Shown: positions 22,762-47,728, counted from the stretch's first letter. The stretch: DNA of 64,000 nucleotides from Candidatus Saccharimonadales bacterium (GCA_025449905.1 JANWIN010000004.1:24656-88655), one strand, 5' to 3'. The notes: generated by a model from the sequence alone, not told the origin. Numbers and translations: made by a program.

Positions 22762-23046
22762 ATGCATAGCGCTCGTCACAAACAGACATTTTGGGATAAG
22801 TTTTGGCGTGATGAACACGGTAACGATATTATTTTAAAGCGGCCTAACAAATTATTGATAATATGGGCAGCAACGGCTTTTCTGAGGGTGTTTCTGCATG
22901 GTGGCTTCTTAGAAGACATATTAAGAGCCATCAGCCTAATTGCATTAGTACTTTGGTGTCTAGTTGAAATAGCTTGGGGCGTAAACTACTTTTGGCGCTC
23001 TATTGGCTGCATGGTCCTAATTATTATTATCTTCGCCACCATCTAA
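22762..23046 (+). CDS. hypothetical small membrane protein
   Basis: 94 aa with two hydrophobic helices. Confidence 0.4.
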   Translation: MHSARHKQTFWDKFWRDEHGNDIILKRPNKLLIIWAATAFLRVFLHGGFLEDILRAISLIALVLWCLVEIAWGVNYFWRSIGCMVLIIIIFATI

Positions 23047-23089
23047 AATTGTACAAGATATTGACGATCGTCATTTCGTTGTACAATTT
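23046..23089. repeat. 44-bp palindromic repeat element, copy 1 (AAATTGTACAA ... TGACGATCGTCA ... TTGTACAATTT)
   Basis: 11-bp terminal inverted repeats flank the perfect 12-bp palindrome TGACGATCGTCA (23062-23073); lies between convergent genes. Confidence 0.6.
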
Positions 23090-23110
23090 CAGAGTTAGAG
23101 TAAGGTGCTG

Positions 23111-23608
23111 TTAACTGTATGAACTGCGTATCTGGAACAACAGCCACAAGCCGATAGCTGAACCTATAAGACTCATTATGAAAGTTCCAACGCCGCCATA
23201 GTCTGTAAACAGAAGTATTACGCCGTAAACAATGTTAACCAGTGCGGCATAGAACATTAAGTTCCAACCAGCTTTTTTACGGTCGCGCGTCCCACGGAAA
23301 GCAGCAATGTACAGAACTGCCTGGACAACTAAAACTATAATCGCCAGCCAAATCCCAACGGTTAGACGGTCTTTGTTAAGGTTGCTGCCGGTAGAAGTCT
23401 TATAAAAACTGTTTGCATAATCAATTAATTTGTTGACGGTATGTGCCCAGTGGTATAGGTTCCAAGCAGCAAGTAGCATTAAAGCTCCTAAAACTACATT
23501 GATCCAGGGCAAATACTTAACCAGCCATTTTTTACCATTTTCTGGTAATTTAGGGGCACTTTTAAAAACGTCCGCCAGGGACTTTTCTAATGAATTTACT
23601 GCAGACAT
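23111..23608 (-). CDS. hypothetical polytopic membrane protein
   Basis: 165 aa, four predicted TM helices; GGAGG RBS upstream. Confidence 0.55.
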   Translation of the reverse strand: MSAVNSLEKSLADVFKSAPKLPENGKKWLVKYLPWINVVLGALMLLAAWNLYHWAHTVNKLIDYANSFYKTSTGSNLNKDRLTVGIWLAIIVLVVQAVLYIAAFRGTRDRKKAGWNLMFYAALVNIVYGVILLFTDYGGVGTFIMSLIGSAIGLWLLFQIRSSYS

Positions 23609-23763
23609 TATGTCTTTTCCTCCTTAATTTATTAATACTAGGATAACCCGTTATTTTTCCGCTCGCAAGCCCCGTCAGAAATAAGCCGCTCAAAGCGGCT
23701 GTTGCAATGGCCACAGGCTGTAGCGGATTTCCTACGGGGCAAGTTTAATATTAGTATAAAAAG

Positions 23764-24324
23764 ATGCTTGATTTACCGGACGATGCTGTGGCGGCTGCCA
23801 AGGTTATATTAGGGCAACTACTAGTTCGAGAAATTAATGACTATAAATTGATGGGCAAAATCGTGGAAACTGAGGCCTACGACCAGAAAGATGCGGCTAG
23901 CCATAGTTACCGCGGCCAAACGCCGCGGACAGATGTTATGTTCGGCCCACCAGGCCGAGCTTATGTTTATTTTACCTACGGCATGCATTACTGCATGAAC
24001 ATAGTCATCGGCAAGCCAGGCTATGGTAGCGCTGTATTAATTCGGGCAATTGAACCTTTAAAAGGTATTGAGCAAATGAAAAAGAAGCGAGGAACGGATA
24101 ATATTCACCAATTAACTAATGGGCCGGCAAAATTATGTCAAGCTTTGAGCATCAATAAAGAATTCAATGGCCATGATTTATCCAAATTACCCCTAAATCT
24201 ACAACTTGGACAAAAAATTCCACCCAGTCAAATTTTCAAAACTACGCGTATAGGTATATCCAAAGACACCCACCGTTTATGGCGTTTTTACATCAAAGAC
24301 AACCTCTTCGTCTCTAAACCCTGA
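23764..24324 (+). CDS. mpg: DNA-3-methyladenine glycosylase (Mpg/AAG family)
   Basis: GKIVETEAYDQKDAASHSYRGQTPRTDVMFGPPGRAYVYFTYGMHYCMNIV is the core Mpg family signature. Confidence 0.85.
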   Translation: MLDLPDDAVAAAKVILGQLLVREINDYKLMGKIVETEAYDQKDAASHSYRGQTPRTDVMFGPPGRAYVYFTYGMHYCMNIVIGKPGYGSAVLIRAIEPLKGIEQMKKKRGTDNIHQLTNGPAKLCQALSINKEFNGHDLSKLPLNLQLGQKIPPSQIFKTTRIGISKDTHRLWRFYIKDNLFVSKP

Positions 24325-24340
24325 GGTATACTTAAGCATA

Positions 24341-24967
24341 ATGCGCGCTAAAAAAGTCCAGCCCCGGCAACAGCTTATTATTATTGCTTCTGCTGGAGTA
24401 CTTTTCTTGGTTTCAGCTGCCCTCGCTTCGGCACACACCCTAAAAGGTTTAGAGAAACAGGTTTTTGATTTTATTTATGGCTGGCCAAATGGGCTAAAAC
24501 CGGCGCTCTGGACTATTACGCAGTTGGGCAGTATATGGACGTTTATAGCCGCTAGTTTAATCTTTGTTTGGCAGCAAAAGAAGCACCTAGCCGCCAAATT
24601 AATAATTTGCGGCTTAAGTTCATATCTTCTGACATCCGTTCTAAAAGGCTTAATTGACAGGCCCAGGCCGGAACTTTTACTGCCTGGCGTCGTCACCAGA
24701 GAAATAATGGCCCCGGGCATGGGCTTTCCCTCAGGCCACACCGCCGCTATAACCGTAGCGGCTTTAATCATTGCCCCATATCTTAAGAAAAAATACCGCT
24801 GGTTGGCTTACTTAGCTATTGCAATGGTGGCAATTTCCAGAATATATCTGGGAGTACATGCGCCGCTTGATGTCGTCGGTGGTTTTGCTCTAGGGGTAAT
24901 AATTGTAAAGTCTTATGAGCTCTTGGCGCTCAAGCTAAAACTTGAAAAAGTTGACCAGCGGGACTAA
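24341..24967 (+). CDS. PAP2 family phosphatase (undecaprenyl-diphosphatase/phosphatidate phosphatase-like)
   Basis: PAP2 motifs KGLIDRPRP ... PSGHT ... RIYLGVHAPLD. Confidence 0.8.
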   Translation: MRAKKVQPRQQLIIIASAGVLFLVSAALASAHTLKGLEKQVFDFIYGWPNGLKPALWTITQLGSIWTFIAASLIFVWQQKKHLAAKLIICGLSSYLLTSVLKGLIDRPRPELLLPGVVTREIMAPGMGFPSGHTAAITVAALIIAPYLKKKYRWLAYLAIAMVAISRIYLGVHAPLDVVGGFALGVIIVKSYELLALKLKLEKVDQRD

Positions 24968-24996
24968 AATTAGGTTGGAAGTGTGAGGCTTCCGCC

Positions 24997-25029
24997 GACC
25001 CTAGGTAATCACCTGGGGTCTTTTTGTTT
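24997..25029 (+). terminator. rho-independent terminator after the PAP2 gene
   Basis: gaccctagg/cctggggtc stem followed by TTTTTGTTT. Confidence 0.55.
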
Positions 25030-25101
25030 GATCTCGATGAATAATTTAACCGCCTCTGTATATATTTGCAATAATACTACTAATATGGTAAAGTCTATTA
25101 A

Positions 25102-26364
25102 ATGAGTCAAATCGAGAGCCTTAACTTTCTTGAGGCGGGCACCGCTGCTGAAGTTGCAGAGCAGTGGGGAACACCAGTTTTTGTATATAACGAAACAACC
25201 CTTGCTGGTCAGGCTGAAAAGGCTTTAGCTTTTGATGCTCCTTACGGACTAACGGTTCGCTATGCTATGAAAGCTAATCCCAATCGCTTTATTATTAATG
25301 CGCTTGCTCGGAGAGGCATTGCTATAGACGCCAGTTCAGGTTTTGAAGCTAGCAGGGCAATACAAGCAGGTGTTAATCCGCAGGATATCTTATTAACCGG
25401 CCAAGAACTCCCTAAAAACTTAGAATCGTTAGTAGAGCAAGGCATCCTCTTTAATGCTTGCTCACTTCGACAACTACACGAATATGGCGAGAAGTTCCCA
25501 GGTACAAATGTTAGTGTCCGGATAAATCCTGGTTTAGGGTCAGGACACTCGAATCGCACAAATGTTGGCGGTCCTTCATCGAGTTTTGGTATTTGGCATG
25601 AATATACAGACCAAGTATTAGCAGTGGCAAAAGAGCACAGCCTAACTATTAATCGTATGCATACGCACATAGGCTCAGGCAGCGATCCTGAGGTATGGAC
25701 CCGTGTGGCAGAAATGAGCCTTGAGCAAACTAAGCATTTTCCTGACGTTGAAGTTTTGAATTTAGGCGGCGGATTTAAAATCGCCAGAATGCAGGATGAA
25801 ATCGAAACAAATTTGGGTACTATCGGTCCAGTTGTTGCCTCTGCTTTAGAAAAGTTTTATCAGCAAACTGGCAGACAACTTAAGTTAGAAATAGAACCCG
25901 GGACATTTTTGGTGGCTAATGCCGGTTCTTTAGTCACCACTATTCACGACATCGTTGACACCGGCGAAGAAGGCTATACTTTTTTGAAAATAGATAGCGG
26001 TATGACAGAAGTTATGCGACCCAGTTTGTATGGCGCTCAGCATCCAATTGTAGTAGTAAATAATAGCCCTGAAGAACACAAAAAATACGTTGTGGTTGGC
26101 CATTGTTGTGAATCAGGCGACCTTTTGACTCCATATCCAAGCGACCCAGAAGTCGTAGCTGAAAGGCTCCTTCAAAAGGCCGATGTCGGGGACCTTTTAG
26201 TAGTTGAGGGTGTTGGTGCATACTGCGCGTACATGTCTGCGCAAAATTACAATTCATTTCCTCTAAGACCTGAAGTTATGAGAACTTGCGCGGGAGAGTT
26301 AATTGAAATTTGCCGCCGCGAGACCCTTCCGGAGATGCTTCAGCTGGAAACTGGTTCCGATTGA
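25102..26364 (+). CDS. lysA: diaminopimelate decarboxylase (Orn/DAP/Arg decarboxylase family 2)
   Basis: YAMKANPNRFII PLP-lysine region; GGG motif LNLGGGFKI; C-terminal EPGTFLVANAG ... GHCCESGD. Confidence 0.8.
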   Translation: MSQIESLNFLEAGTAAEVAEQWGTPVFVYNETTLAGQAEKALAFDAPYGLTVRYAMKANPNRFIINALARRGIAIDASSGFEASRAIQAGVNPQDILLTGQELPKNLESLVEQGILFNACSLRQLHEYGEKFPGTNVSVRINPGLGSGHSNRTNVGGPSSSFGIWHEYTDQVLAVAKEHSLTINRMHTHIGSGSDPEVWTRVAEMSLEQTKHFPDVEVLNLGGGFKIARMQDEIETNLGTIGPVVASALEKFYQQTGRQLKLEIEPGTFLVANAGSLVTTIHDIVDTGEEGYTFLKIDSGMTEVMRPSLYGAQHPIVVVNNSPEEHKKYVVVGHCCESGDLLTPYPSDPEVVAERLLQKADVGDLLVVEGVGAYCAYMSAQNYNSFPLRPEVMRTCAGELIEICRRETLPEMLQLETGSD

Positions 26365-26792
26365 AGCGACTTAGTTCGCTTTAGTTCTTTGCATCTAGGA
26401 CAGTAACCACGGATTTCCAGCTGATGATCCATGGCTTTAAAGCCTTGTTTATCAACCATACTTTTTATGTTTTTCTCTATAGCTGGTTGGTCGGGCAGGG
26501 TAATCACCTTACCGCAGTTTATGCAGGTGAAATGATGATGGTGATGCTGAAAAATATCGCTCAACTCAATTTTGGTTAGCCAGCCAAGGCGCAGGCGATT
26601 TATTACTCCCAGCTCCTCAAATAAGGCAATGTTGCGATAAACAGTTGCCTGATCGTGTTTGGGTACCAGCAGAATTAGTTGATTAACTGTCAGGGCAGGA
26701 TGCTTTTGCAAAACAGCAAAAAGTCTGAGCCGGGGTTTGGTTATATAGTGCTTGTTTTTCTTAAGCAGAGACTTGAGGCGGCGAATTTCCAT
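26340..26792 (-). CDS. Fur family transcriptional regulator (Zur-like by genomic context)
   Basis: Winged-helix N-terminus; HHHHHF ... CINCGK ... CPRCK metal-site motifs; divergent from a ZIP transporter. Confidence 0.8.
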   Translation of the reverse strand: MEIRRLKSLLKKNKHYITKPRLRLFAVLQKHPALTVNQLILLVPKHDQATVYRNIALFEELGVINRLRLGWLTKIELSDIFQHHHHHFTCINCGKVITLPDQPAIEKNIKSMVDKQGFKAMDHQLEIRGYCPRCKELKRTKSLQSEPVSS

Positions 26793-26805
26793 ATCGCAAT
26801 TTTAC

Positions 26806-26834
26806 TATAATTTGCGAAAAATTTGCAAATTATA
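26806..26834. promoter_or_regulatory. candidate Zur/Fur box in the divergent promoter
   Basis: Inverted repeat TATAATTTGC-GAAAAATTT-GCAAATTATA, 14 bp upstream of the regulator's start and upstream of the ZIP gene. Confidence 0.5.
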
Positions 26835-26858
26835 AGGAAGAGGGGTATATTCCAGATA

Positions 26859-27614
26859 ATGGCAAATTATTGGCAAGTTATATTTTTCTCGCTGGTCGGT
26901 GGCGTATTTTCGCTGGTCGGTGGCCTGTTGATGCTCAGCCACAAAAAAACGGCTGAAATTTTAGCCGCCTATGCCACACCCTTTGCAGCCGGGGCTCTGC
27001 TGGCTGCAGTTTTTATGGATCTTTTAAAAGACGGGCTGGAAGTAGCCTCGGCTGATACGGTTTTACTGGCTACTATGATTGGTCTTGTATCTTTCTTTTT
27101 TGCCGAGCGGTTTTTGCATTGGTTTCACCACCATCACCAGCACGAAAATAGTGACCCGGCGATTGGGCTAATAGTTGTTGGTGACACTATCCATAACGCT
27201 CTCGACGGTGTGGCTATTGCCGCAGCCTTTTTAATAAGCGTTCCAACCGGCATAGTTACAACCATAGCGGTAGCGGCGCACGAAATTCCTCAGGAAATTG
27301 GCGATTTTGGCTTATTGTTAGCCAAAGGCATGAAACGGACTAAAGTCCTATGGGTCAATGTTTTTAGCGCACTGGCAACGACTGTGATGGCAATTATAAC
27401 TTTTGCTTTGGGTAGTGAGGATAAATTGCCGTTGGGGTGGCTGATTGGAATTAGTGCCGGCTTTTTGCTTTATATCGCCGCCAGCGATATTATTCCAGAG
27501 ATTCATGAAAAGGCTCATCCTAAGCGTCTATTTGATCTGCAACCGGTAATGCTTCTTGTAGGTGTGATAGTGGTGAGTGTTGCCATTCAGCTGGCTCATC
27601 AATTTGTCGAATAA
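26859..27614 (+). CDS. ZIP family zinc transporter (ZupT-like)
   Basis: His-rich loop HHHHQHE; GDTIHNALDG and HEIPQEIGDF motifs; start taken at the ATG at 26859 rather than the track's TTG at 26823. Confidence 0.8.
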   Translation: MANYWQVIFFSLVGGVFSLVGGLLMLSHKKTAEILAAYATPFAAGALLAAVFMDLLKDGLEVASADTVLLATMIGLVSFFFAERFLHWFHHHHQHENSDPAIGLIVVGDTIHNALDGVAIAAAFLISVPTGIVTTIAVAAHEIPQEIGDFGLLLAKGMKRTKVLWVNVFSALATTVMAIITFALGSEDKLPLGWLIGISAGFLLYIAASDIIPEIHEKAHPKRLFDLQPVMLLVGVIVVSVAIQLAHQFVE

Positions 27615-27876
27615 ATTCTTGGTTTTGGATTCGAACCTGATCTCTATATTTTCTAAAGCCACTTTTGACAATCAAACTACCACCTACAATAGCTGCGGCT
27701 CCCAAAAGCCTTTCAGCTATACTTTTGCTGTTACCAAATAATAGGCGGCGTCCCACCTCGGCACTTAACAGACCTACTGGAACACTGATGGTTGGTAGGC
27801 TTTCGGCAACTTCCTCCGTGAAATCACAAGCTGCGCCAAGCCACTCTATCCCTGTTGCAAACACCTGCTCGCTCAT
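27520..27876 (-). CDS. hypothetical protein (doubtful; overlaps the ZIP gene's 3' end by about 95 nt)
   Basis: ORF track only. Confidence 0.3.
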   Translation of the reverse strand: MSEQVFATGIEWLGAACDFTEEVAESLPTISVPVGLLSAEVGRRLLFGNSKSIAERLLGAAAIVGGSLIVKSGFRKYRDQVRIQNQEFIRQIDEPAEWQHSPLSHLQEALPVADQIDA

Positions 27877-27938
27877 AGACTAAATTTACCACTTTTTTGC
27901 CAGAATGCAAATTACAGTCAACTGTTATAATTTAGACC

Positions 27939-28145
27939 ATGCTAAAGGCAAAAAACAAAAAATTAGACATTGCTGTTTTACTAGCCCTGGCTGTTATAAT
28001 TGCGGGTTTTATTATTTTTTCGCTAAGCTCTTCAAATCAAGAACGGGCCAATAGTATTAAAGAAGCCTGCAAAAGGGCCGAAAAAAATCGTTCCACTGAA
28101 CTGTCTCGCGACGACTACATTTGTCTGACGGGTAGAACAGAGTAA
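27939..28145 (+). CDS. hypothetical small membrane protein
   Basis: 68-aa ORF with one TM helix. Confidence 0.3.
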   Translation: MLKAKNKKLDIAVLLALAVIIAGFIIFSLSSSNQERANSIKEACKRAEKNRSTELSRDDYICLTGRTE

Positions 28146-28168
28146 CAAATGTGTCGTAAAATATCAAC

Positions 28169-29230
28169 ATGCTAATTGCATTAATTGTTTTGGGATTTTT
28201 GTGCTTGGCTCTGGCCGGCCTGGCATTGTATTTCTTGCTCAAAAAACCAGCCACCGATAATAGCACCCTGATGCTCAAACAAGATTTAACGCAGCTCAGC
28301 GAAAATGTTAGCAAACTACAAACCGGCCTGCAGAAGCAATTCACCGAACAACTGGGACAGAGCAACAAGCAGATGACCGCCCAATTTCAGGCCAGTGCCA
28401 AAATCATCACTGACGTTACTAAAAAACTTACCGAGCTGGACAGAACCAATAAAAATGTCGGCGATATTGCTTCGGAGCTTAAAACTCTGCAAAACGTTCT
28501 GCAAAACCCCAAGCAACGCGGCGTGATTGGCGAATATTACCTGGAGCAGATTTTAAAAAACATGTTGCCACCTGGTGCTTATCAGCTGCAATATAACTTG
28601 GGCGATGGGCAAGTGGTTGACGCTGTGATTAAACTGGACGACAAACTTCTGCCGATCGACAGCAAATTCAGTCTGGAAAACTACAACCGCTTAGTTGATG
28701 CTAAAACAGAGGAAAAACCGGCCTTGGAGCGAGCCTTTAAAGAAGATTTAAAAAAACGTATAGATGAAACAGCTAAATACATTAAACCGGGCAAGGGCAC
28801 TCTAAACCAGGCTCTGATGTTTGTGCCTTCGGAAGCCATTTACTATGATCTGCTGGCCAATAAGGTTGGGCTTGGTAAGGTCTCTGGTCGCAGTTTGATG
28901 CAATACGCCGCCGGCGATAAGAAAGTTACGATTGTTGGTCCCAGTACACTGTCGGCCATGATGCAAATTATTATTCAGGGCCTGCGTTCTATGGAAATTC
29001 ATAAGGACACCGAGCAAATACGCAAAAACATCGAAGCCCTAAGCAAGCACTTGGTTGCCCATAACGGCTATATGCAAAAGCTTGGCAACAGTTTAGGCAC
29101 TACTGTTGGGCATTACAACACCACCTACAAAGAGCTAGGCAAAATAGACCGCGATATTGTCAAGATTGCTGAAACTAAGCCATCTGTTGAGCCAATCCTC
29201 CTTGATAAGCCCACAAACGATAATGATTGA
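28169..29230 (+). CDS. rmuC: DNA recombination protein RmuC
   Basis: N-terminal TM helix, long coiled coil, and the conserved RmuC C-terminal block MFVPSEAIYYDLL. Confidence 0.8.
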   Translation: MLIALIVLGFLCLALAGLALYFLLKKPATDNSTLMLKQDLTQLSENVSKLQTGLQKQFTEQLGQSNKQMTAQFQASAKIITDVTKKLTELDRTNKNVGDIASELKTLQNVLQNPKQRGVIGEYYLEQILKNMLPPGAYQLQYNLGDGQVVDAVIKLDDKLLPIDSKFSLENYNRLVDAKTEEKPALERAFKEDLKKRIDETAKYIKPGKGTLNQALMFVPSEAIYYDLLANKVGLGKVSGRSLMQYAAGDKKVTIVGPSTLSAMMQIIIQGLRSMEIHKDTEQIRKNIEALSKHLVAHNGYMQKLGNSLGTTVGHYNTTYKELGKIDRDIVKIAETKPSVEPILLDKPTNDND

Positions 29231-29262
29231 CAGTAATTTATAAGTGTGATATAGTATTATAA

Positions 29263-29691
29263 ATGACAGCAAGTTTAGAGTTCAGCGAACTAATAGTAAA
29301 TATGCGCATAAACGCAGGTTGGTCAGAAAAGCGTGCTCGAGAAATTCTCAGCCTTGAAAAATCTCAAGAGATATATCCAGACCGTGAAGCTAGCTATTTA
29401 GAATACAGAGGGCTGGCTATTGGTGAGTTAGCAGTACGCCAGAGCTTAGATAATGAAGAAGCTGATGGCTCCTATGTCGCATTTTCCTGGCAAGAACCTG
29501 CCACTGTTCTACTAGCTGCTAATAGATTTTATACTACAAATGGCTATTCTGACGATACTTCAACGGCGCGCTCCCATGAAGCTGTAGACTCTCTAGTTGA
29601 TCAAATTGTTACTTGGAAAACTTCTTTAGGAAGAGTCGCAGTTGATTTACAACCTAGTGCAGGTCCAATTTCTGCAAGTCACCAGCTTTGA
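29263..29691 (+). CDS. hypothetical protein
   Basis: ORF track; no motif recognised. Confidence 0.45.
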   Translation: MTASLEFSELIVNMRINAGWSEKRAREILSLEKSQEIYPDREASYLEYRGLAIGELAVRQSLDNEEADGSYVAFSWQEPATVLLAANRFYTTNGYSDDTSTARSHEAVDSLVDQIVTWKTSLGRVAVDLQPSAGPISASHQL

Positions 29692-29704
29692 GACAACTTA
29701 ACCT

Positions 29705-31021
29705 TTAACTGAGTAAATCAATCATAAGTGCGGCGCTCCAGGATAGAGTACGGCTGCCGGCTGGCGAGCCGTCAATCGGTGAAAAGTATTCCCGGAAGCC
29801 ACTCTTTTTTATCATTTGAATCATTTGCATCTTTATATGCTCAGCCTCTTTTTCAAAACCATATCTTTTTAAACCTTCAATAATTAACCAGTTGGTATTT
29901 ATCCAAACCGGACCTTGCCAATAGCGATGCGGGTCAAACCAGCTAGAGTTTAGCGGCACGCTCGGTACTGGAAATTTTGGCCCGAAAACTTTGCTTTGGT
30001 GCAGCATTTCAATTAATTCAGCCGCCCGTTCTTTGCTAATACAACCGGCATAAAGTGGCATCAGTGCGCCTATACTCGGCTCAATTATAAGATTATGGGT
30101 AACAAAGTTACGTGAGTAATACTGCTTGGTCTGTTCGTCCCAAAGTGATTCCAGGGCTGCTTCACTTTTGCGCATACTTTCCAGCAGCTTTTCGGGGAGT
30201 TTAGCATCTATGGCTTTGGCAATTTGTTTCAGTTGGTGGTTAGCGCGAATTAAGATGCAGTTAAAGTTAATGTCTTCAATGGCAAAAATTGAATGATCGA
30301 GTATTTTATCTATATCGTAAGCTTTTCGCTTTAATCTTCTTTGAACAGAGAATAGCACTAAGGTTTCAAAGTTGGTCAGTCTTTCGCTAGAGCGTACAAA
30401 ACGCGTATCTCTTCTAACTAAATGAACAGCTGGTTCAAGAAGCTTGCTTGATAAAATCCTTATCCATAAAGGAAATTTATGATCTTTTAAGGCTCTCATC
30501 CAGGGTGGTGTGTTATCTAGGCCGGTTTCCCAAGGATGAACCTGCAGGGTCAAACCTTCATCATGCGGATCGCGCTCAGCGTACAGCCACTCGTGGTAAC
30601 GAACAATGTGCGGGTAGGTAGACTTAAACCAACTATGTTTTTCGACTAGACTAAGCTTCTCGCCAATTTTGACGACGGCCTCGGCTACCATTGGCGGCTG
30701 GGTTAATCCGCTGGTTGCTACGTTATTAGGTGAATTAGGATTTAAGTCGGCTCGAAATAATTCTCTGTCGCGATAATGCTCGCGGCCTGGCAAAAATATA
30801 ATGTGTGGCAGCATACCGTTTAGCCATTGGCCGCGTAGCAAGCTTTTTATCTCTTTCTGTGCTCGCTCAACATCGTAGTGGCGAATTCCAATAGAGATAA
30901 AACAACTGTCCCATAACCACTGATGAGGATACAAGCCGGCCGCCGGAATGGTGTAGTCACCCTTGTCGCTGGCGCGCAAAACTTCACGCGCGCCAGCAAT
31001 GATATCGGCCGGCTCTTCCAT
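29705..31021 (-). CDS. six-hairpin glycoside hydrolase, GH63-like (glucosyl/mannosylglycerate hydrolase-like)
   Basis: N-terminal YPHQWLWDSCF and WLNGMLPHIIF motifs resemble GH63/MGH family enzymes. Confidence 0.55.
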   Translation of the reverse strand: MEEPADIIAGAREVLRASDKGDYTIPAAGLYPHQWLWDSCFISIGIRHYDVERAQKEIKSLLRGQWLNGMLPHIIFLPGREHYRDRELFRADLNPNSPNNVATSGLTQPPMVAEAVVKIGEKLSLVEKHSWFKSTYPHIVRYHEWLYAERDPHDEGLTLQVHPWETGLDNTPPWMRALKDHKFPLWIRILSSKLLEPAVHLVRRDTRFVRSSERLTNFETLVLFSVQRRLKRKAYDIDKILDHSIFAIEDINFNCILIRANHQLKQIAKAIDAKLPEKLLESMRKSEAALESLWDEQTKQYYSRNFVTHNLIIEPSIGALMPLYAGCISKERAAELIEMLHQSKVFGPKFPVPSVPLNSSWFDPHRYWQGPVWINTNWLIIEGLKRYGFEKEAEHIKMQMIQMIKKSGFREYFSPIDGSPAGSRTLSWSAALMIDLLS

Positions 31022-31094
31022 TCTTCAAGTATAACTCCACCGCAGTAAAATTGCTCATGCTTGCGTGGCATGAACTGGTTGTTATGCTAGATAT

Positions 31095-40866: not shown

Positions 40867-40884
40867 CGGTTATAATAAAAAGCC

Positions 40885-41412
40885 ATGGCCGAATTACCTA
40901 AACGCATCGCTGCCCTGACCTTGGCAGGAGTCTTTTTAATTACCACCATTGGCTTTAGCGTCTTGATTATTGTTCAAATCAATCAGCAGAATAAAAATAA
41001 TAGCGGCCAGCAGGACTCGATTAATAAGCAGCTAAAAGGTACAAAACTAGAGAATTTTACACCCGTTAGTAAGGTTGACAAACTGAAAATTACCGATTTG
41101 GAAAAAGGTAAAGGCGTAGCCGCGAAAGCTGGAGATAACGTAACTGTTTATTATATTGGCGCTCTGGCAAATAGCGGCGTAGTGTTCGATTCATCTTCCG
41201 ATCATGGTAGTGAACAACCAGTCAGCACCGTTAATTTAAGCGAAGTGATAAAGGGCTGGAGTCGTGGCATCCCAGGCATGAAACCGGGCGGAACGCGCCG
41301 CTTATTGATACCTGCCGACCTCGCCTATGGCGCCAATCCTCCAGCTGGGGCGGGCATTCCTGCCGATACTGATTTGGTGTTTGATATAACGCTATTGGCA
41401 GCCCAAAAATAG
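40885..41412 (+). CDS. FKBP-type peptidyl-prolyl cis-trans isomerase, membrane-anchored
   Basis: GDNVTVYYIGALANSGVVFDSS ... IKGWSRGIPGMKPGGTRRLLIPADLAYG. Confidence 0.8.
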   Translation: MAELPKRIAALTLAGVFLITTIGFSVLIIVQINQQNKNNSGQQDSINKQLKGTKLENFTPVSKVDKLKITDLEKGKGVAAKAGDNVTVYYIGALANSGVVFDSSSDHGSEQPVSTVNLSEVIKGWSRGIPGMKPGGTRRLLIPADLAYGANPPAGAGIPADTDLVFDITLLAAQK

Positions 41413-41416
41413 CAGG

Positions 41417-41450
41417 CGCTAAATAGCGTGGTTTTTAGCCAATTTGGTGC
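41417..41450 (+). terminator. probable rho-independent terminator after the FKBP gene
   Basis: ggcgcta/tagcgtgg hairpin followed by TTTTT. Confidence 0.4.
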
Positions 41451-41473
41451 AAAAAACACTACATATGGGGCTA

Positions 41474-41502
41474 TTGACATTAACTAATACGCTAACTATA
41501 CT
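41474..41502 (+). promoter_or_regulatory. sigma70-type promoter for the grx-trxB unit
   Basis: TTGACA (41474-41479), 17-nt spacer, TATACT (41497-41502); RBS AAAGGGGA before the ATG at 41568. Confidence 0.55.
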
Positions 41503-41567
41503 GAAGACACAACTTAAATATTCAACATAAACACCTCACATAAATTCATCAAAAAAAGGGGACTAAG

Positions 41568-41816
41568 ATGCCAAAAAACATCACTATCTTTACTACCAAC
41601 ACCTGCGCTTACTGCGGCATGGTAAAAAAATGGCTGGGCGCTAAGGGCTACAGCTACGAGGAAGTCAACATAGACGAGCATCCCGAACGACAGCAAGAAG
41701 CCCTACAAGCCAGCGGCCAGTTAGCTGTACCGGTTACGGTTGTTACTCGCCAAGACGATTCACAAGAAGTAGTTGTGGGTTATAATTTAGCCAAACTAGC
41801 CCCTGCCGTCTCGTAG
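41568..41816 (+). CDS. glutaredoxin/NrdH-like redoxin
   Basis: CAYC active site in ITIFTTNTCAYCGMVKKWL; about 80 aa thioredoxin fold. Confidence 0.75.
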   Translation: MPKNITIFTTNTCAYCGMVKKWLGAKGYSYEEVNIDEHPERQQEALQASGQLAVPVTVVTRQDDSQEVVVGYNLAKLAPAVS

Positions 41817-41955
41817 ATTTGTTTTATATAAATACATTGCGGTGTCGAAACTTGCGCGCTTCATTCAGCGTACTATTCAAGTACGCCTCATTACAGTGCT
41901 CAGCTTCTCTTAGCACTGCATTCATCTAAAACAAATCTGTTAGAATAGAAAAAAT

Positions 41956-42921
41956 ATGGTTGAAGAGACGACTGATAAAAATAAGGTTTGGGATGTGGTG
42001 ATGATTGGCGCTGGGCCGGCTTCACTAGCCGCCGCCGTCTATACAACCCGTGAAGATATCGAGACTGTATTATTCGAAAAAGGTGCTATTGGCGGTTTAG
42101 CGGCAGTAACCGACTGGGTAGATAATTACCCGGGCTTTCCCAAAGGCATCTCCGGACTAGATTTATCTGCTAATCTTCAAGCCCAAGCCGAACGTTTCGG
42201 CGCCAAGATTGAGCTGGGCGAAGTCAGCAAAATTGAAGATAAGGGTGATTATAAGCTCCTGCAAACCACTGAAGGGGAATATAAGGCCAAGGCCATCTTA
42301 ATCGCCACAGGCAGTGATTATAAAAAAATTGGTGTACCTGGCGAGGCGGAATTTTATGCCCGAGGCGTACACTACTGCGCCACCTGCGACGGTGCCTTTT
42401 ACCGTGACAAAAAACTGGTGGTGGTTGGCGGTGGCAACTCAGCAGCTCAGGAATCATTATTCTTAACCAAATTTGCCACCCATATTGATTTGTTAGTGCG
42501 CAGTACTTTTAAGGCTAGCGATATCTTGCAAAAAGAAGTTAAACAAAATCCTAAAATCACAATTCACATAGGCACCACAACTGATGAAATTGTCGGTAAA
42601 GACGGTAAAGTTACAAAAGTGATTGGAACGGACACGGCCAGCGGCAAAAAAGTGGAGTTTCCAACTGATGGGGTGTTTGTGTTTGTTGGCCTATCACCAA
42701 ATACCGAATTTTTGGCTGGCAGTAGTATTGAGCTTGATAACATTGGACTGATTAAAACTAGCATGAACGATTTGCAAACAAATATGCCCGGTGTGTTTGT
42801 GGCTGGCGATGTTCATTCCGGAGCGACCATGCAAATTGCCAGCGCCGTTGGCGAAGGCGCCACGGCCGCTCTACATATCCGCGAGTATCTTGAAGGCAAA
42901 CCACATCCGATTCAGAATTAA
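41956..42921 (+). CDS. trxB: thioredoxin-disulfide reductase
   Basis: GAGPASLAAAVY FAD motif; CATCDG redox-active disulfide; VVGGGNSA NADPH motif. Confidence 0.9.
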   Translation: MVEETTDKNKVWDVVMIGAGPASLAAAVYTTREDIETVLFEKGAIGGLAAVTDWVDNYPGFPKGISGLDLSANLQAQAERFGAKIELGEVSKIEDKGDYKLLQTTEGEYKAKAILIATGSDYKKIGVPGEAEFYARGVHYCATCDGAFYRDKKLVVVGGGNSAAQESLFLTKFATHIDLLVRSTFKASDILQKEVKQNPKITIHIGTTTDEIVGKDGKVTKVIGTDTASGKKVEFPTDGVFVFVGLSPNTEFLAGSSIELDNIGLIKTSMNDLQTNMPGVFVAGDVHSGATMQIASAVGEGATAALHIREYLEGKPHPIQN

Positions 42922-43595
42922 ATGGGGGGGTAGCCGGGGAAGAAGTCACCAACTAGTTCGTTCTTGGGCACACCCAGTTTTTCTAGCTCTTCCATAAAAG
43001 TTTCAACCATTGGCTCTGGCCCGGATATATAAATTCGCTTGGCCTTGCCGGTTAATTTCAGTATTTTTTGCGAGGTTAAGCTCTGGCCTTTTTCTTTTAC
43101 GAACAAAACCGGCTTTATACCATACTTCTTAAACAGATCTAAAAATATAGCGTCCCGGGCTTCATTAAGCGCCCAGATAAATTGAATTTCGCGCTTTTCA
43201 CCTGTATCAAGCAAGTATTGAACTATGCTGTGAAACGGTGTGACGCCAATGCCGCCGGCTACAAAAACCAAAGGAATACTTTTATCTTTGGGTAGGACAA
43301 AGTCTCCCATTGGCTCAGCCAAATCAACCTCGGCGCCTTCTTTAAGCTTAAAGAGTGTTTTCTTGAATGAGCTACCTTTAGCGCCGGCGTCTTTGGTGGT
43401 TATAGACCAGAGATTATTCGTCGGCGATGCTGAAATCGTAAACCAGTGCTTTTTGCCGCGTTCGTCTGGGTTTTTATGCGGTAAGTAAAGTTCAGTAAAC
43501 TGGCCGGCTGTAAATTTAACCTTGCGGGGTAGCCGCCACCAAAAAGTTGTAACGTTATGATTAATTTTCTCCTTGTGGTCAAACACCGCTTTCAT
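42918..43595 (-). CDS. FNR-like FAD/NAD(P)-binding oxidoreductase
   Basis: Ferredoxin-reductase-type motifs RLPRKVKFTAGQF ... WFTISASP ... FVAGGIGVTP; start trimmed to the internal ATG at 43595 (MKAVFDH) to avoid a 185-nt overlap with ppa. Confidence 0.6.
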   Translation of the reverse strand: MKAVFDHKEKINHNVTTFWWRLPRKVKFTAGQFTELYLPHKNPDERGKKHWFTISASPTNNLWSITTKDAGAKGSSFKKTLFKLKEGAEVDLAEPMGDFVLPKDKSIPLVFVAGGIGVTPFHSIVQYLLDTGEKREIQFIWALNEARDAIFLDLFKKYGIKPVLFVKEKGQSLTSQKILKLTGKAKRIYISGPEPMVETFMEELEKLGVPKNELVGDFFPGYPPI

Positions 43596-43640
43596 AGGCC
43601 TTTTTAGTGTACAATAAGTGCTGAAATTAAGGAGAAATAA

Positions 43641-44168
43641 ATGCCTGACTTTAATAAAATACTGAACCCTGGAGACATAGAAAAGGGAATAGTAAATACC
43701 GTTATTGAAATTCCTAAATGGTCTACTTTGAAAATTGAGTGGAATCGCGAACTTGCCTGCTTTGAATTGGACCGCGTTGAGCCAAGTATTTTTGCTAAGC
43801 CAGCCAATTATGGCTTTATTCCGCAAACTCTAGATGGCGACGGTGATGAGTTAGACACATTGGTTTTGACTAATGACCCTATCCCAACCGGAGTTTATGT
43901 CAAAGCCAAAGTCATCGGCGTACTTAATTTTGAGGACGATGGTGACGAAGATCATAAAATTGTTTGTGTCCCGGTTGATGATAGAAATACGGGAGATGCG
44001 ATTCAGTCTTTAGATGATGTCCACGATCGCTGGAAAGAAAAAATTGAACATCATTTCAACCATTACAAAGACTTATATAAGCCTGGCTCTACTAAAGTAT
44101 TAGGCTGGGGTGATGCCGAAGCAGCTAAGAAAATAATCCAAGAATCGATAGAACGCGCCAAGAAGTGA
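43641..44168 (+). CDS. ppa: inorganic pyrophosphatase (family I)
   Basis: EIPKWSTLKIEWNRE ... YGFIPQTLDGDGDELD metal-binding Asp cluster. Confidence 0.9.
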   Translation: MPDFNKILNPGDIEKGIVNTVIEIPKWSTLKIEWNRELACFELDRVEPSIFAKPANYGFIPQTLDGDGDELDTLVLTNDPIPTGVYVKAKVIGVLNFEDDGDEDHKIVCVPVDDRNTGDAIQSLDDVHDRWKEKIEHHFNHYKDLYKPGSTKVLGWGDAEAAKKIIQESIERAKK

Positions 44169-44581
44169 AAAACATACGAACTGTAGCTAAAGCTGTTCTT
44201 TTTAATGGCGACAAAGTTTTAACTGTACGCCGAAGCAAAACCGATCCGCGTCGTCCTTTAGAGTGGGATTTGCCTGGTGGGATTGTTGAAGACGGCGAAG
44301 AGTTCAACGAAGCTTGCGCCAGGGAAATACTAGAAGAAGTAAATATAAAAGTCGATCCTAAAAAGCTACATCTAGCTCATGCGCAAACTGAGATGGTTGA
44401 AGGTAAAGGCAATACATCTTGGCTTATTTATGTAGGTAGGATAAACGAGACAAAAGTAGAGCTAAGCTTTGAGCATGATAAATTTCAATGGGTAAGTTTG
44501 GTGGAAGCCATAAAACTAAACTATTATGAGCGTCAGCTTCGTGCTCTTAACCATATAAAAGAAAATAATTTAATACCTTGA
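44165..44581 (+). CDS. NUDIX hydrolase
   Basis: Nudix box GGIVEDGEEFNEACAREILEEVNI. Confidence 0.8.
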   Translation: MKNIRTVAKAVLFNGDKVLTVRRSKTDPRRPLEWDLPGGIVEDGEEFNEACAREILEEVNIKVDPKKLHLAHAQTEMVEGKGNTSWLIYVGRINETKVELSFEHDKFQWVSLVEAIKLNYYERQLRALNHIKENNLIP

Positions 44582-44614
44582 TTTATAGCTTAAAAAGTAT
44601 TATAATAAGTTAAT

Positions 44615-44920
44615 ATGGAAAGTTTTTATTCTTTGGCTGACTTTGATAAAGATCACGACAGGTGGGCGGCTACTGGTCGTCATGGAGCAGCGGCGGAAGA
44701 GTTTTTCTATTTCTACACTAAACGCGATGAGCACAGCGGAAGATTAAGACCAGCGGTTGAGCTAACATCAGAAATAGCTCAGCAGTACCATCATCATCTA
44801 GCTGGGCTGGTAACCGTCGACGCCGTTCCTTTGGCAGTTCATGGCAGAATACAAAAAGCAGAGCTTGCTGACTTTGCGGCTAAATTGACTGACCTGTATA
44901 CAACAGTTGAACAAGCTTAG
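44615..44920 (+). CDS. hypothetical protein
   Basis: ORF track; no motif. Confidence 0.4.
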   Translation: MESFYSLADFDKDHDRWAATGRHGAAAEEFFYFYTKRDEHSGRLRPAVELTSEIAQQYHHHLAGLVTVDAVPLAVHGRIQKAELADFAAKLTDLYTTVEQA

Positions 44921-44976
44921 TTCTATCTATATAATTGCCAAAAGAAAAACACTAGCGTTTAAAGGGTAAAATATTT

Positions 44977-45993
44977 ATGAAAATTAGGGTGGCTATCAAC
45001 GGCTTCGGAAGAATTGGGCGCAACACTTTTAAAATTGCTTTTGATCGACCCGACCTGGATATCGTCGCTATTAACGACCTAACTGATACCAAAACCCTAG
45101 CTCATCTTTTGAAGCATGATAGCAACTACGGACTTTACGACAAAGATGTTAAATCTGACGAACAACACATCATAGTAGAGGGCCAACCAATCAAGGTTCT
45201 GGGAGAAAAAGATCCGTCAAAATTACCTTGGAACGAAATGGGCGTTGACGTGGCCATTGAGTGTACCGGTTTGTTCACGCATCACGAGGATCTAGAGATG
45301 CATCTTAAAGCCGGTGCCAAGCGGGTAGTTTTATCGGCACCGGAAAAAGATGACACTCACCACGACACTTACTTAATTGGCGTTAACGAGCACGACCTAA
45401 AACCAGAACACACGATTATTTCTAACGCCAGTTGTACAACCAACTGCATTACACCTGTTGCCGCGGTAGTGGAAAGCAAATTTGGTATTGAAAAAGTTAT
45501 GATGACCACCGTCCATAGTTATACAGCCAGCCAAAAATTGCAGGATGCCCCAGCCAAAGATTTGCGCGAAGCCCGGAACGCTGCCGAGAACATTGTGCCG
45601 ACCACGACCGGCGCCTCAATTGCGGCGTCTAAGGCTCTGCCAGCCCTAAAAGGTGTCTTTGGAGGTATGAGCATTCGCGTGCCCACCCCGGTGGTCAGTC
45701 TTAGCGATTTTGTCTTTATAACCAAGCGCAAAGTCACTGTTGATGAAGTCAACCAGGCTTTTGTTGAAGCGGCTCGAAATCCTTACTACCAAGGCATATT
45801 AGATGTTACCGAGGAAGAACTAGTTAGCAGCGACTTCATCGGCAATAGCCACTCGGCAATTGTCGATTTAAAACTTACAGCTGTGATTGATGGCGATATG
45901 CTCAAAGTTGTAGCTTGGTATGACAACGAATGGGGCTACTCCAATCGTCTAGTGGAAATGGTTGCCGAAGCCGGCAAACAACTTGCCCGATGA
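44977..45993 (+). CDS. gap: glyceraldehyde-3-phosphate dehydrogenase
   Basis: INGFGRIGR NAD motif; active site ASCTTNC; WYDNEWGYS. Confidence 0.9.
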   Translation: MKIRVAINGFGRIGRNTFKIAFDRPDLDIVAINDLTDTKTLAHLLKHDSNYGLYDKDVKSDEQHIIVEGQPIKVLGEKDPSKLPWNEMGVDVAIECTGLFTHHEDLEMHLKAGAKRVVLSAPEKDDTHHDTYLIGVNEHDLKPEHTIISNASCTTNCITPVAAVVESKFGIEKVMMTTVHSYTASQKLQDAPAKDLREARNAAENIVPTTTGASIAASKALPALKGVFGGMSIRVPTPVVSLSDFVFITKRKVTVDEVNQAFVEAARNPYYQGILDVTEEELVSSDFIGNSHSAIVDLKLTAVIDGDMLKVVAWYDNEWGYSNRLVEMVAEAGKQLAR

Positions 45994-46433
45994 AGATTTT
46001 TATTGGCGCTGATCACCAGGGTTTCCACTTGCGCAACGCTTTAATTAGCTATCTAAAAAGTGCCGGCTATGATGTAGTTGATGATGGCGACAAACAACTT
46101 AATCCCGAAGATGATTTCCCGATTTTTACGCAAAAAGTTATTAAAGACGTTCTGGCCAGTGACGACAACGAATCGCGCGGTATTTTAATCTGCGGCAGCG
46201 GCCAAGGGATGTGTATAGCCGCAAATCGTTTTAAGGGCATTCGTGCATGCCTGGGTTTTGATAAAGAAAGTATCCGCAGTGCGCGAAGTGACGATAATGC
46301 CAATGTACTATGCCTACCATCAAAAATTTTAGAAAAAGACGAGGCCAATATTATGGTTGAGCTATTTCTAAATACTCAATTTGCTGATGCGCCGCGTTTC
46401 AACCGTCGTCTCCGCGAAATAGATGAGTTCTAA
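45990..46433 (+). CDS. rpiB: ribose-5-phosphate isomerase B
   Basis: MKIFIGADHQGF ... ILICGSGQGMCIAANRF; ATG overlaps the gap TGA stop (ATGA). Confidence 0.85.
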   Translation: MKIFIGADHQGFHLRNALISYLKSAGYDVVDDGDKQLNPEDDFPIFTQKVIKDVLASDDNESRGILICGSGQGMCIAANRFKGIRACLGFDKESIRSARSDDNANVLCLPSKILEKDEANIMVELFLNTQFADAPRFNRRLREIDEF

Positions 46434-47064
46434 AATGAGCGTTATTTGCCCGACAGTTACCGCCACCAATAGCCACATTTACCGCGCCCAGTTGGAAAAG
46501 GTGGCCAAATTTTCCAAGCGCATACACTTAGATTTTGCCGATAGTGAGTTTACTGATGTACAACTGATGGACTTAAGCCAAGCCTGGAAGCCAGAAGGCT
46601 TAGTTGTTGATTTGCACATGATGTTTAAAAATCCTACCGAACAATTAGAACATGCTATTAAACTCAAAGCTGACCTAATTATCTTGCAAGCTGAATCGGA
46701 AGGAAATTTCAGAGATTTAGCCAGTCGGATTAAACAGTCTAATATAAAAGTCGGCATAGCTTTATTACCAAAAACGTCGGTAGCAAACATATCTAAAATC
46801 TTGCCAATCCTTGACCATGTTTTAATTTTTAGCGGTCACTTGGGGCACCAGGGCGGTCGGGCTGACCTATCACTACTTGGTAAAATAAGTGAAGTTAAAG
46901 AAATCAAGCCGGATATTGAAATCGGTTGGGACGGTGGCATTAATGATCAAAACTCTAAAACCTTATCGACAAATGGTGTTGATGTCCTAAATGTCGGCGG
47001 CTTCATCCAGCAGGCCAAAAATCCGGCCAAGGCCTACTCAAAACTCATCAAAATCGTCTCTTAA
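46423..47064 (+). CDS. ribulose-phosphate 3-epimerase-like TIM-barrel protein (divergent Rpe family)
   Basis: ICPTVTA ... HLDFADSEF ... GWDGGIN pattern parallels the Rpe motifs ICPSILSAD ... HLDVMDG ... VDGGI. Confidence 0.55.
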   Translation: MSSKMSVICPTVTATNSHIYRAQLEKVAKFSKRIHLDFADSEFTDVQLMDLSQAWKPEGLVVDLHMMFKNPTEQLEHAIKLKADLIILQAESEGNFRDLASRIKQSNIKVGIALLPKTSVANISKILPILDHVLIFSGHLGHQGGRADLSLLGKISEVKEIKPDIEIGWDGGINDQNSKTLSTNGVDVLNVGGFIQQAKNPAKAYSKLIKIVS

Positions 47065-47106
47065 ATTGTACAAGATATTGACGATCGTCACAAAAGGGGA
47101 CAATTT
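47063..47106. repeat. 44-bp palindromic repeat element, copy 2
   Basis: aaattgtacaagatattgacgatcgtcacaaaaggggacaattt; shares its left half with copy 1 and its right half with copy 3; central TGACGATCGTCA at 47079-47090. Confidence 0.6.
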
Positions 47107-47678
47107 CAAAAAAGTGCTGGGTAGAGTTTTTTGAAATGCTTCATCATATTGCCAGTCGGCTGAAAATCTACCACCTCCAATAGCTGCAAATGTTGCTCAA
47201 TTCCGTAGGCTTTTTGGATTGCATGAAAGGCCTCAAGATAGGGCAGAGGGTGAATCCACAGACTTAGCTGCAGTTGCTTAAAGCCTAACTCTTTTAGTAA
47301 CCGACGGATGTGGTGTCTGGCGTCGCGTAATGGTTCAGGAATATCGAAGGCCACTAGACGCCAGCGACCATCCCACTTAGCAATTTTAGGTTGCTTATAT
47401 TTTAAGAATGTAAGTTTTTCTAGTTCTTCTATGCCGGTTTTGGTAATTGCGAATTCGGCCTTGCCATAAGTGCCACTCTTTTTAATTAAGCCAACCTCCT
47501 CTAGGTTGTAAAGTTGGCGTTGAACCTCTCGCCGTGTCGGTCGTTTACCAAAGTTGGGATTAACCAACACTTTGTCCATAATTTCGTTTAAGCTAGCACC
47601 GGCGCTAATTTCTTTGATGACCTGCATATACCAAAAAGCAGCATCGCTAATTTTGTGTGGCCAAATATATTTCCCCAT
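47106..47678 (-). CDS. PaaX family transcriptional regulator
   Basis: N-terminal winged helix; C-terminal PaaX_C block WDGRWRLVAFDIPE ... RRLLKELGF ... SLWIHP. Confidence 0.7.
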   Translation of the reverse strand: MGKYIWPHKISDAAFWYMQVIKEISAGASLNEIMDKVLVNPNFGKRPTRREVQRQLYNLEEVGLIKKSGTYGKAEFAITKTGIEELEKLTFLKYKQPKIAKWDGRWRLVAFDIPEPLRDARHHIRRLLKELGFKQLQLSLWIHPLPYLEAFHAIQKAYGIEQHLQLLEVVDFQPTGNMMKHFKKLYPALF

Positions 47679-47684
47679 TTGCTA

Positions 47685-47728
47685 AAATTGTACCAAAAGA
47701 TGACGATCGTCACAAAAGGGGACAATTT
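47685..47728. repeat. 44-bp palindromic repeat element, copy 3 (in the divergent paaX-like/tkt promoter region)
   Basis: aaattgtaccaaaagatgacgatcgtcacaaaaggggacaattt; TGACGATCGTCA at 47701-47712; 7 bp upstream of the regulator's start codon. Confidence 0.6.

Follow-up and report, generated by a model that had tools for sequence, protein, structure and literature searches.

A palindromic site conserved on both sides of a PaaX-like gene in CPR bacteria, and its probable role as the operator of that gene

The transcriptional repressor PaaX of Escherichia coli acts at the operator TGATTC-N27-GAATCA and represses its own promoter, Px (PMC9493321). The 6-bp arms of this operator lie about 14 to 19 bp from its center, and the site is 39 bp overall. 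Palindromes are also found in bacteria as dispersed elements. Repetitive extragenic palindromes (REPs) flank the gene for the REP-associated tyrosine transposase (RAYT). Rickettsia palindromic elements (RPEs) are about 100 to 150 bp long. The Correia elements of Neisseria, also called Neisseria miniature insertion sequences (NEMIS), measure about 100 to 155 bp, carry a TA duplication, and occur in hundreds of copies. Here, we describe a 44-bp palindromic repeat in a 64,000-nucleotide stretch of DNA (the window) from a Candidatus Saccharimonadales bacterium (GCA_025449905.1 JANWIN010000004.1:24656-88655). Two of its three copies bracket a gene encoding a PaaX-like protein.

The main point, which goes beyond an earlier sequence-only reading of the window, is that a site-gene-site module is conserved across the Candidate Phyla Radiation (CPR). 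We found the PaaX-like gene between two palindromes of this family, each roughly 40 bp long, in 15 independent CPR lineages (Saccharimonadales, Liptonbacteria, and others), with proteins of 170 to 220 aa. These lineages are the window and the loci L012, L015, L054, L055, L003, L010, L016, L027, L030, L038, L039, L047, L048, and L056. We consider it probable that the palindrome is the cognate site of the PaaX-like protein, and that its start-proximal copy is the promoter of the gene itself and, in Saccharimonadales, a control site for the tkt-fba-pfkB operon. What is new here is the proposed pairing of a PaaX-type operator with its regulator, the unusual and deeply conserved bracket architecture, and the occasional dispersal of the site.

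The dyad-symmetric repeat AAATTGT-N9-TGACGATCGTCA-N9-ACAATTT occurs in the window at 23046-23089 (copy 1), 47063-47106 (copy 2), and 47685-47728 (copy 3). The symmetry center is the middle of CGATCG. All three copies agree in the 7-bp outer arms and the 12-bp core; the mosaic variation is confined to the two 9-bp spacers. Copy 1 reads AAATTGTACAAGATAT TGACGATCGTCA TTTCGTTGTACAATTT, copy 2 reads AAATTGTACAAGATAT TGACGATCGTCA CAAAAGGGGACAATTT, and copy 3 reads AAATTGTACCAAAAGA TGACGATCGTCA CAAAAGGGGACAATTT. The first 28 nt are the same in copies 1 and 2, and the last 28 nt are the same in copies 2 and 3. Both the three copies and their mosaic relationship had been proposed in the sequence-only reading, and both proved correct. 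The 12-mer TGACGATCGTCA is found three times in the window against an expected 0.06, and the full pattern (26 specified bases, up to 3 mismatches tolerated) is found three times against an expected 0.00; these counts rule out coincidence. The arm AAATTGTMC is confined, within the window, to the three copies. We rejected a CRISPR-like array, because the spacings between copies are 24017 and 622 bp and a tandem array was not found.

Open reading frame (ORF) coordinates and domain matches agree with the gene contexts that had been claimed for the three copies. Copy 1 is a solo copy between convergent genes, with the stop codon of a 94-aa ORF (23044-23046) on one side and that of a gene for a 165-aa membrane protein (23111-23608, minus strand) on the other. 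Copy 2, the stop-proximal member of the bracketing pair, makes up the entire convergent gap from the rpe stop codon (47062-47064) to the stop codon of the PaaX-like gene (47106-47108, minus strand). Copy 3, the start-proximal member, lies in the divergent promoter region shared by the PaaX-like and transketolase genes. Its edges are 6 nt from the PaaX-like start codon (ATG, 47676-47678) and 53 nt from that of the transketolase N subunit (ATG, 47782). The PaaX-like gene itself (47106-47678, minus strand) encodes 190 aa with a winged helix and a Cas2-like (PaaX_M) domain, and its product is the presumed binder of the site. The gapdh-rpiB-rpe operon (44977-47064, plus strand; rpe at 46423-47064) ends at copy 2. 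Downstream of copy 3 is an operon for the N and C subunits of transketolase, a class II fructose-bisphosphate aldolase, and a PfkB kinase (47782-51538, plus strand).

The sequence-only reading had suggested a comparison of orthologous loci, and bracketing palindromes are conserved in four further Saccharimonadales lineages. This comparison covered the window and L012, L013, L014, L015, L054, and L055, where L012, L013, and L014 are one species sampled three times. The PaaX-like orthologues of these loci share 44 to 55% protein identity. The order gapdh-rpiB-rpe, PaaX-like gene, tktN-tktC, aldolase gene, and, further on, pfkB is the same in L012, L015, L054, and L055. The aldolase is class II in the first three and class I ("Glycolytic") in L055. 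In all four, a CGATCG-centered palindrome is present in both gaps beside the PaaX-like gene, and the position of copy 2 is conserved.

To search more widely, we used two DNA patterns. The first, AAATTGT-N9-TGACGATCGTCA, was run against species-representative genomes, one genome per species. It gave 11 matches, three of them in CPR bacteria: a Saccharibacteria (L010), a Liptonbacteria (L003), and a Parcubacteria (L008) genome. The other eight, on contigs labeled as non-CPR taxa, were set aside as chance matches. The second, TTGT-N9/10-TGACGATCGTCA-N9/10-ACAA, was run against metagenomes; its core and TTGT/ACAA ends are fixed, so that a test of symmetry is unbiased only for the positions between them. 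It gave 38 loci. Some seven of these were set aside as chance, as they have nonsymmetric spacers and fall inside long ORFs of GC-rich contigs. The others are intergenic on AT-rich, CPR-like contigs, many of which come from groundwater filtrates (0.1 µm). The sole match in a viral collection (L064, 1020-1110) was judged unrelated. It lies within a run of repeated GTGACG/GTCACAC motifs, which looks like a different, iterated binding-site array.

A local hidden Markov model of the PaaX-like family placed the gene next to the site in L003, L010 (the same locus as L045), L016, L027, L030, L038, L039, L047, L048, and L053. In L033, a truncated N terminus of this kind is beside the site. Altogether, a PaaX-like ORF adjoins the site in 11 of about 30 nonredundant CPR loci found by DNA pattern, and by our own estimate a single-copy gene would adjoin about 0.2% of random intergenic gaps by chance. 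When we searched for palindromes at both ends of the gene, a second, less perfect copy was present on the opposite side wherever the contig reached that far. The core varies together with lineage: it is TGACGATCGTCA in the window and L055, TGACGATCGG(C/A)A in L012, CTACGATCGTA(C/G) in L015, and TCACGATCGTGA in L054. Of two distant homologues, L056 has TGACGGCCGTCA palindromes on both sides, and L057 has a single flanking palindrome, which is different.

We then examined the anatomy of the site in 53 to 54 distinct sites. Dyad symmetry is 94 to 100% at 1 to 6 bp from the center, 59 to 81% at 7 to 12 bp, and 85 to 93% at 13 to 19 bp, and it falls to background from 21 bp outward. A gap-free alignment shows no variation at C20, G21, C24, and G25. 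The arms differ by lineage, with TTGTAC, TTGTAACAAAA, TTGTCTAAT/TTGTCTCAT, TTGTTCCAY, TTGTTATAC, TTGTCCGC, and TTGTGCAA as variants. On average, palindrome symmetry is more complete in stop-proximal and solo copies than in start-proximal ones; of 13 informative loci, 10 give the stop-proximal copy the higher score. Matching the recognition helix of the protein against the core and arm variants gave no visible pattern, as there were too few lineages. Two contigs with family members carry a further palindrome. In L028, a second palindrome of different sequence (AGAGTGCACGCATTTC TTGCGATCGTTA AAAATGCGTACACTGA, 6226-6269) is near a Fic-domain gene, 77 bp from the family member at 6303-6346. In L036, a long palindrome with a variant core (TAGATTATATTACATC GTACGACCGTAG GATGTAATATAATTCC, 1003-1046) accompanies the family member and is near a gene for an RF-type release factor. 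The ORF of this gene is seemingly N-terminally truncated, perhaps by the prfB frameshift.

The 190-aa protein has a single Pfam match, to PaaX_M (PF20803, "central Cas2-like domain"), with an E value of 2.4e-21. A profile built from 33 homologues found E. coli PaaX (8a39) at 1e-6, followed only by weak winged-helix, VapD, and Cas2 matches. An AlphaFold (AF2) model with a predicted local distance difference test score (pLDDT) of 83 shows a winged helix and then a beta-alpha-beta-beta-alpha-beta domain. Foldseek ranked 8a39 first for this model, followed by 3kfw, 3l09, and Cas2 chains. However, the protein scores 30.9 bits against TIGR02277, which has a cutoff of 264.55, and Pfam found no PaaX_C domain in it. 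The "PaaX-family regulator" of the sequence-only reading is therefore PaaX-like, with 8a39 as its best relative of solved structure, but it is not a PaaX orthologue. Cas2 models score below their cutoff (21.1 versus 24.5), and PADLOC gave weak Cas2 matches only and found no defense-system context. At an E value of 1e-3 or lower the family has 7341 clusters at 50% identity, and at 1e-10 or lower it has 5274; most members are 170 to 230 aa long, and the family seems to belong largely to CPR organisms. Full-text literature searches returned no paper on PaaX-like proteins in Patescibacteria, none that joins PaaX with the term Cas2-like, and none containing the 12-mer.

W102, D103, W106, D112, P114, E115, R121, and S139 are invariant in the family. 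The family alignment contains no invariant His or Tyr and no HUH/Tyr, DDE, or recombinase motif. The aspartate of a conserved "FDIPE" motif lies where the protein aligns with the N-terminal strand of Cas2 models; in our reading of the alignment, it may correspond to the Cas2 catalytic aspartate. In its database entry (P0001, 173 aa), the PaaX-like gene begins at M18 (window 47627-47678, minus strand). We prefer the 190-aa reading because the upstream N terminus, MGKYIWP, is kept in orthologues. The annotated start is thus probably 17 codons too short, and it hides the closeness of the gene to copy 3.

The likeness to E. coli PaaX extends to the DNA, where the symmetry of the CPR site peaks 13 to 19 bp from the center and spans 40 bp, although geometry alone was compared. 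The arms therefore stand at the positions of the E. coli operator arms, roughly three helical turns apart, which is the strongest family-level argument for binding of the site by this protein. Both proteins have a winged helix followed by a Cas2-like central domain, and the autoregulation known for E. coli PaaX would have its counterpart here. However, the CPR protein has 190 aa and no PaaX_C effector domain, whereas E. coli PaaX has 316 aa. The 12-bp core, invariant here, has no counterpart in the E. coli operator, the FDIPE motif kept here is lost in E. coli PaaX in the alignment, and the CPR sites are on both sides of the gene. No paa genes are beside the PaaX-like gene; its neighbors are gapdh, rpiB, rpe, tkt, fba, and pfkB. 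The protein also differs from CRISPR Cas2, which is a stand-alone protein of about 90 aa, in that its Cas2-like domain is fused to a winged helix.

The position of the start-proximal site relative to the gene is conserved as well. The PaaX-like ATG is at +26 to +31 from the dyad center in 11 of the 15 lineages; three others have it at +35 to +38. In about 9 of 16 start-proximal sites, the gene-facing arm contains TACAAT, GACAAT, AACAAT, TATGAT, or TAGTAT, ending 6 to 9 nt before the ATG. The core half that lies 15 to 16 bp upstream of this arm hexamer reads TTGACG or GTGACG. In copy 3, a consensus scan found TTGTGA, 17 bp, and TG-n-TACAAT (47687-47715, minus strand) directed toward the PaaX-like ATG, and the -10-like box ends 8 nt before it. 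We infer from this arrangement a sigma-70-like promoter embedded in the palindrome that would give a leaderless or near-leaderless mRNA. A protein bound there would therefore autoregulate. One solo copy resembles this arrangement: in L040 (1595-1650), a copy makes up the whole infB/rbfA gap, with the rbfA ATG at +31 from the center as for PaaX-like genes. That copy might act inside a translation-factor operon, as a promoter or as a point of control.

On the other side of copy 3, a putative promoter of the transketolase operon (47727-47755, plus strand) would consist of a -35-like TTGGGT (47727-47732), which shares the last 2 nt of copy 3, a 17-bp spacer, and the -10 hexamer TATAGT (47750-47755). 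This assignment of hexamers is our own reading. TATAGT followed by CATAAG (CGTAAG in L055) is found at +44 to +46 from the center in the window, L012, L015, L054, and L055. The -35-like hexamer abuts the arm, and the distance of the -10 hexamer is kept in L055 despite the inverted PaaX-like gene of that locus. The likely start of tkt transcription would be some 57 bp downstream of the site center, a distance that fits repression and activation alike. Together, the bracketing in 15 lineages, the promoter geometry, and the conserved tkt distance provide strong sequence-level support for the link to the PaaX-like protein that the sequence-only reading had considered possible.

The three window copies differ in how well they fold as single strands. 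Copy 1 is the best hairpin, being complementary at 18 of 22 dyad positions, with RNA folding energies of -17.8 and -21 kcal/mol (z of -4.6 and -6.0). Copy 2 folds no better than shuffled sequence (z of -0.8 and -1.6), with its stem followed by TTT only, and copy 3 folds moderately. None of the three copies was called by a terminator scan or matched an Rfam family at the gathering score. The terminator-like hairpin that had been suggested fits copy 1 in its folding but not copy 2. Copies 2 and 3 keep arms and core but not the hairpin; therefore, protein recognition fits better than selection for folding.

These hexamers and hairpins bear on the idea that the palindrome is a signal in its own right, a symmetric bidirectional sigma-70 promoter and/or a bidirectional intrinsic terminator, and that the nearness of the PaaX-like gene is incidental. 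Promoter-like -35 and -10 hexamers can be read both ways, strong hairpins right after stop codons are formed by copy 1 and many metagenomic copies, and copy 1 sits where relatives have a terminator. However, CGATCG does not vary in any of 53 aligned sites (53 of 53), far more strictly than a -35 box needs, and a promoter between convergent genes would give antisense RNA only. Nor does this idea explain why one particular gene is bracketed in 15 lineages, and the poor folding of copies 2 and 3 and the empty terminator scan also speak against it. We regard it as highly improbable.

The mechanism that we infer from these patterns, covering binding, promoter function, and direction of regulation, would be as follows. 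A dimer of the PaaX-like protein, joined by the Cas2-like domain, would contact the outer arms 13 to 20 bp from the center, and the CGATCG-centered core would also be recognized. The start-proximal copy would be the sigma-70-type promoter of the gene, with the core half as -35 and the arm nACAAT as -10. Transcription from it would yield a leaderless mRNA, and binding would autoregulate the PaaX-like gene. Since the same copy abuts the putative -35 of the transketolase-fba-pfkB operon at a fixed distance, the protein may also control that operon. The stop-proximal copy would be a second operator and may serve as a loop anchor, a roadblock or insulator, or a terminator. The site would occasionally be copied elsewhere, as in copy 1 and a methyltransferase insertion, and would there probably be neutral or act as a hairpin or terminator.

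The evidence for such copying comes from sites at new places. The slot of copy 1 was found with synteny kept in L061 (65% identity; PAP2, MPG, membrane protein, and 89-aa ORF) and in L065/L066 (72% identity). In these relatives, the slot contains a canonical GC-rich hairpin and T-run terminator without the palindrome. In L026, a copy with arms TTGTTCCAT lies in frame inside a class I methyltransferase gene, where it encodes "FHQVDDRQRNGT." Most methyltransferase orthologues have a short linker, one clade has an extra "LLFHQVDDRQRNGT" (GAC GAT CGT CAA = DDRQ), and a sister group has a shorter "xDDRQxxET." The spacers are not conserved across species, yet in the window copies 1 and 2 share the left one and copies 2 and 3 the right one. 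Therefore, the window copies are related by duplication or conversion with a break point at the core.

Copies outside the module are few. The 64-kb window has three copies in all, and we found about one solo copy per 190 kb or so of CPR sequence scanned. The neighbors of solo copies (infB/rbfA, HAD/argS, NUDIX, trpS, efp, RF2, VirD4, Fic, a type IV secretion system [T4SS] pilin, MFS, DUF1614, and acs) are unrelated, and a coherent regulon was rejected for that reason. There was no excess of direct repeats, as a target-site duplication would produce, at any boundary from 19 to 26 bp. The sequence-only reading had also proposed a REP-like element or a miniature inverted-repeat transposable element (MITE). 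This proposal holds insofar as copies were gained at new places, namely the copy 1 slot and the in-frame methyltransferase copy, with insertion differences between orthologous sites. However, the copy number is low, a target-site duplication was not detected, and no transposase is involved. The operator and the REP/MITE-like element of that reading have thus both gained support, and neither is complete.

The comparison with described elements is similarly mixed. Like REPs, the CPR sites are short intergenic palindromes, often after stop codons, whose sequences vary with lineage, and one vertically inherited gene is flanked by copies on both sides. However, the flanked gene is not an IS200/IS605-like Y1 (HUH) transposase, there is no GTAG/GTGG head, and the elements are AT-rich and, in the sequence scanned, few, against tens to hundreds of REPs per genome. 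The L026 methyltransferase clade recalls RPEs, in that an element was inserted in frame in a coding gene of a reduced genome and then kept. Here, however, the element is 40 bp, there is one such case, and the associated protein gene has no RPE counterpart. Correia elements are likewise small dispersed inverted repeats with promoter-like hexamers, protein-binding sites, and action at transcript ends, but their TA duplication and copy number were not seen for the CPR sites.

A REP/RAYT-like system built on a Cas2 fold would account for several of these observations. In it, the protein would recognize, cut, and spread the palindromes, and operator use would be secondary. In 15 lineages, the gene stands between copies of its own palindrome, much as REPs flank RAYT genes. 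Solo copy 1 was gained where L061, L065, and L066 have a terminator, and the in-frame "FHQVDDRQRNGT" insertion in one methyltransferase clade is absent from most orthologues. The variable spacers are identical between window copies, the arms covary strongly, and many copies are perfect palindromes of 40 to 50 bp. In addition, D103, D112, E115, and S139 of the Cas2-like domain are invariant. However, copies are very few in the sequence scanned, neither a target-site duplication nor HUH/Tyr, DDE, or recombinase motifs were found, and no His or Tyr is invariant in the family. Among solved structures, the nearest relative is a transcriptional repressor, the positions relative to two promoters are conserved across species, and the module stays between rpe and tkt down to 44% protein identity. 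We think such a system unlikely. In a broader form, the protein would be more than a repressor, namely a Cas2-derived, site-specific DNA enzyme that recognizes the bracketing palindromes, as duplex or as hairpin or cruciform, and occasionally copies, inserts, or recombines them across CPR in a REP/RAYT-like or att-like manner. We hold this, too, to be unlikely.

The orientation of the gene raises the possibility of recombination at the sites. In L055 (9328-11541), the PaaX-like gene is codirectional with rpe and tkt, whereas the window, L012, L015, and L054 have it in the opposite orientation. Both sites are kept in L055; therefore, the segment between the palindromes was inverted once. In L030 (2-1240), rpe and the PaaX-like gene are also codirectional. 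An att-like cassette would explain this arrangement if the palindromes were crossover sites at the core, where the gene is inverted, excised, or integrated, and if solo copies were empty sites or scars. The half-site mosaic of copies 1 to 3 breaks at the core, and a palindromic site without polarity would permit both inversion and deletion. However, no recombinase gene is beside the module. There is one inversion among five lineages, for which ordinary recombination between 44-bp inverted repeats is sufficient, L012, L013, and L014 share one orientation, and gene conversion explains the mosaic equally well. An att-like cassette is very unlikely in our judgment. Neither it nor a REP/RAYT-like role is exclusive of operator function.

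Several observations weigh against the operator as a sufficient account of the palindrome. The arms vary by lineage and yet remain self-complementary, with 86.4% of cells paired versus 61.9% in shuffled data. The covariation score is 0.564, compared with 0.162 for shuffles and 0.11 to 0.15 for slid controls. Pairs of copies from the same genome show 22 compensated differences; of their other positions, 147 are identical, 66 differ with loss of symmetry in one copy, and 17 differ without pairing in either copy. The compensated arms hint at hairpin or cruciform formation or at a symmetry-restoring process. G·U wobble, a sign of selection at the RNA level, showed no excess (GT+TG 24 versus CA+AC 30), in a test weakened because the sites are not oriented by transcription. 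Spacer identity within a genome, together with insertion-type presence and absence, indicates copying and not fresh origin. Many solo copies lie 0 to 50 bp after the stop codons of unrelated genes with no coherent regulon. The stop-proximal copy, conserved across phyla, is often between convergent genes, which is unusual for an operator. D103, D112, and E115 are invariant, including an Asp of the Cas2 catalytic type that is absent in E. coli PaaX. A purely structural role in dimerization does not suffice to explain these retained residues. Finally, it is geometrically demanding for a dimer of a 190-aa protein to span the roughly 33 bp between arm centers.

Other features of the window are given here for completeness. 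Transketolase is split into two ORFs with a 14-nt overlap (47782-49603, plus strand), one for the N-terminal thiamine-diphosphate part and one for the pyrimidine-binding/C-terminal part, and L012, L015, L054, and L055 have the same split. The longest rpiB ORF runs 64 nt into the end of gapdh (45930-45993). Its Pfam match begins at residue 23, and the true start is therefore probably further downstream. Four tandem paralogues of 206, 229, 220, and 245 aa (53450-56161, plus strand) share a nearly identical type IV pilin-like N terminus (GFT[AV][VI]EGLLIL...GIIGGVGW), and their C-terminal parts are unrelated. A single tRNA gene (14580-14650, minus strand) is the sole Rfam match in the window.

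The pairing of regulator and site offers a concrete, testable case for CPR bacteria (Patescibacteria), whose transcriptional control is barely known. In Saccharimonadales, the module sits in the middle of a pentose-phosphate and glycolysis gene cluster, and some members of this group are now open to culture and genetic manipulation. Three features set the site apart from an ordinary operator: the bracket is found across phyla, residues of the Cas2 active-site type are retained, and the site has been inserted elsewhere, even in frame. If it is true that the protein acts enzymatically on its sites, this would be a new route from the Cas2 fold to a DNA-element system.

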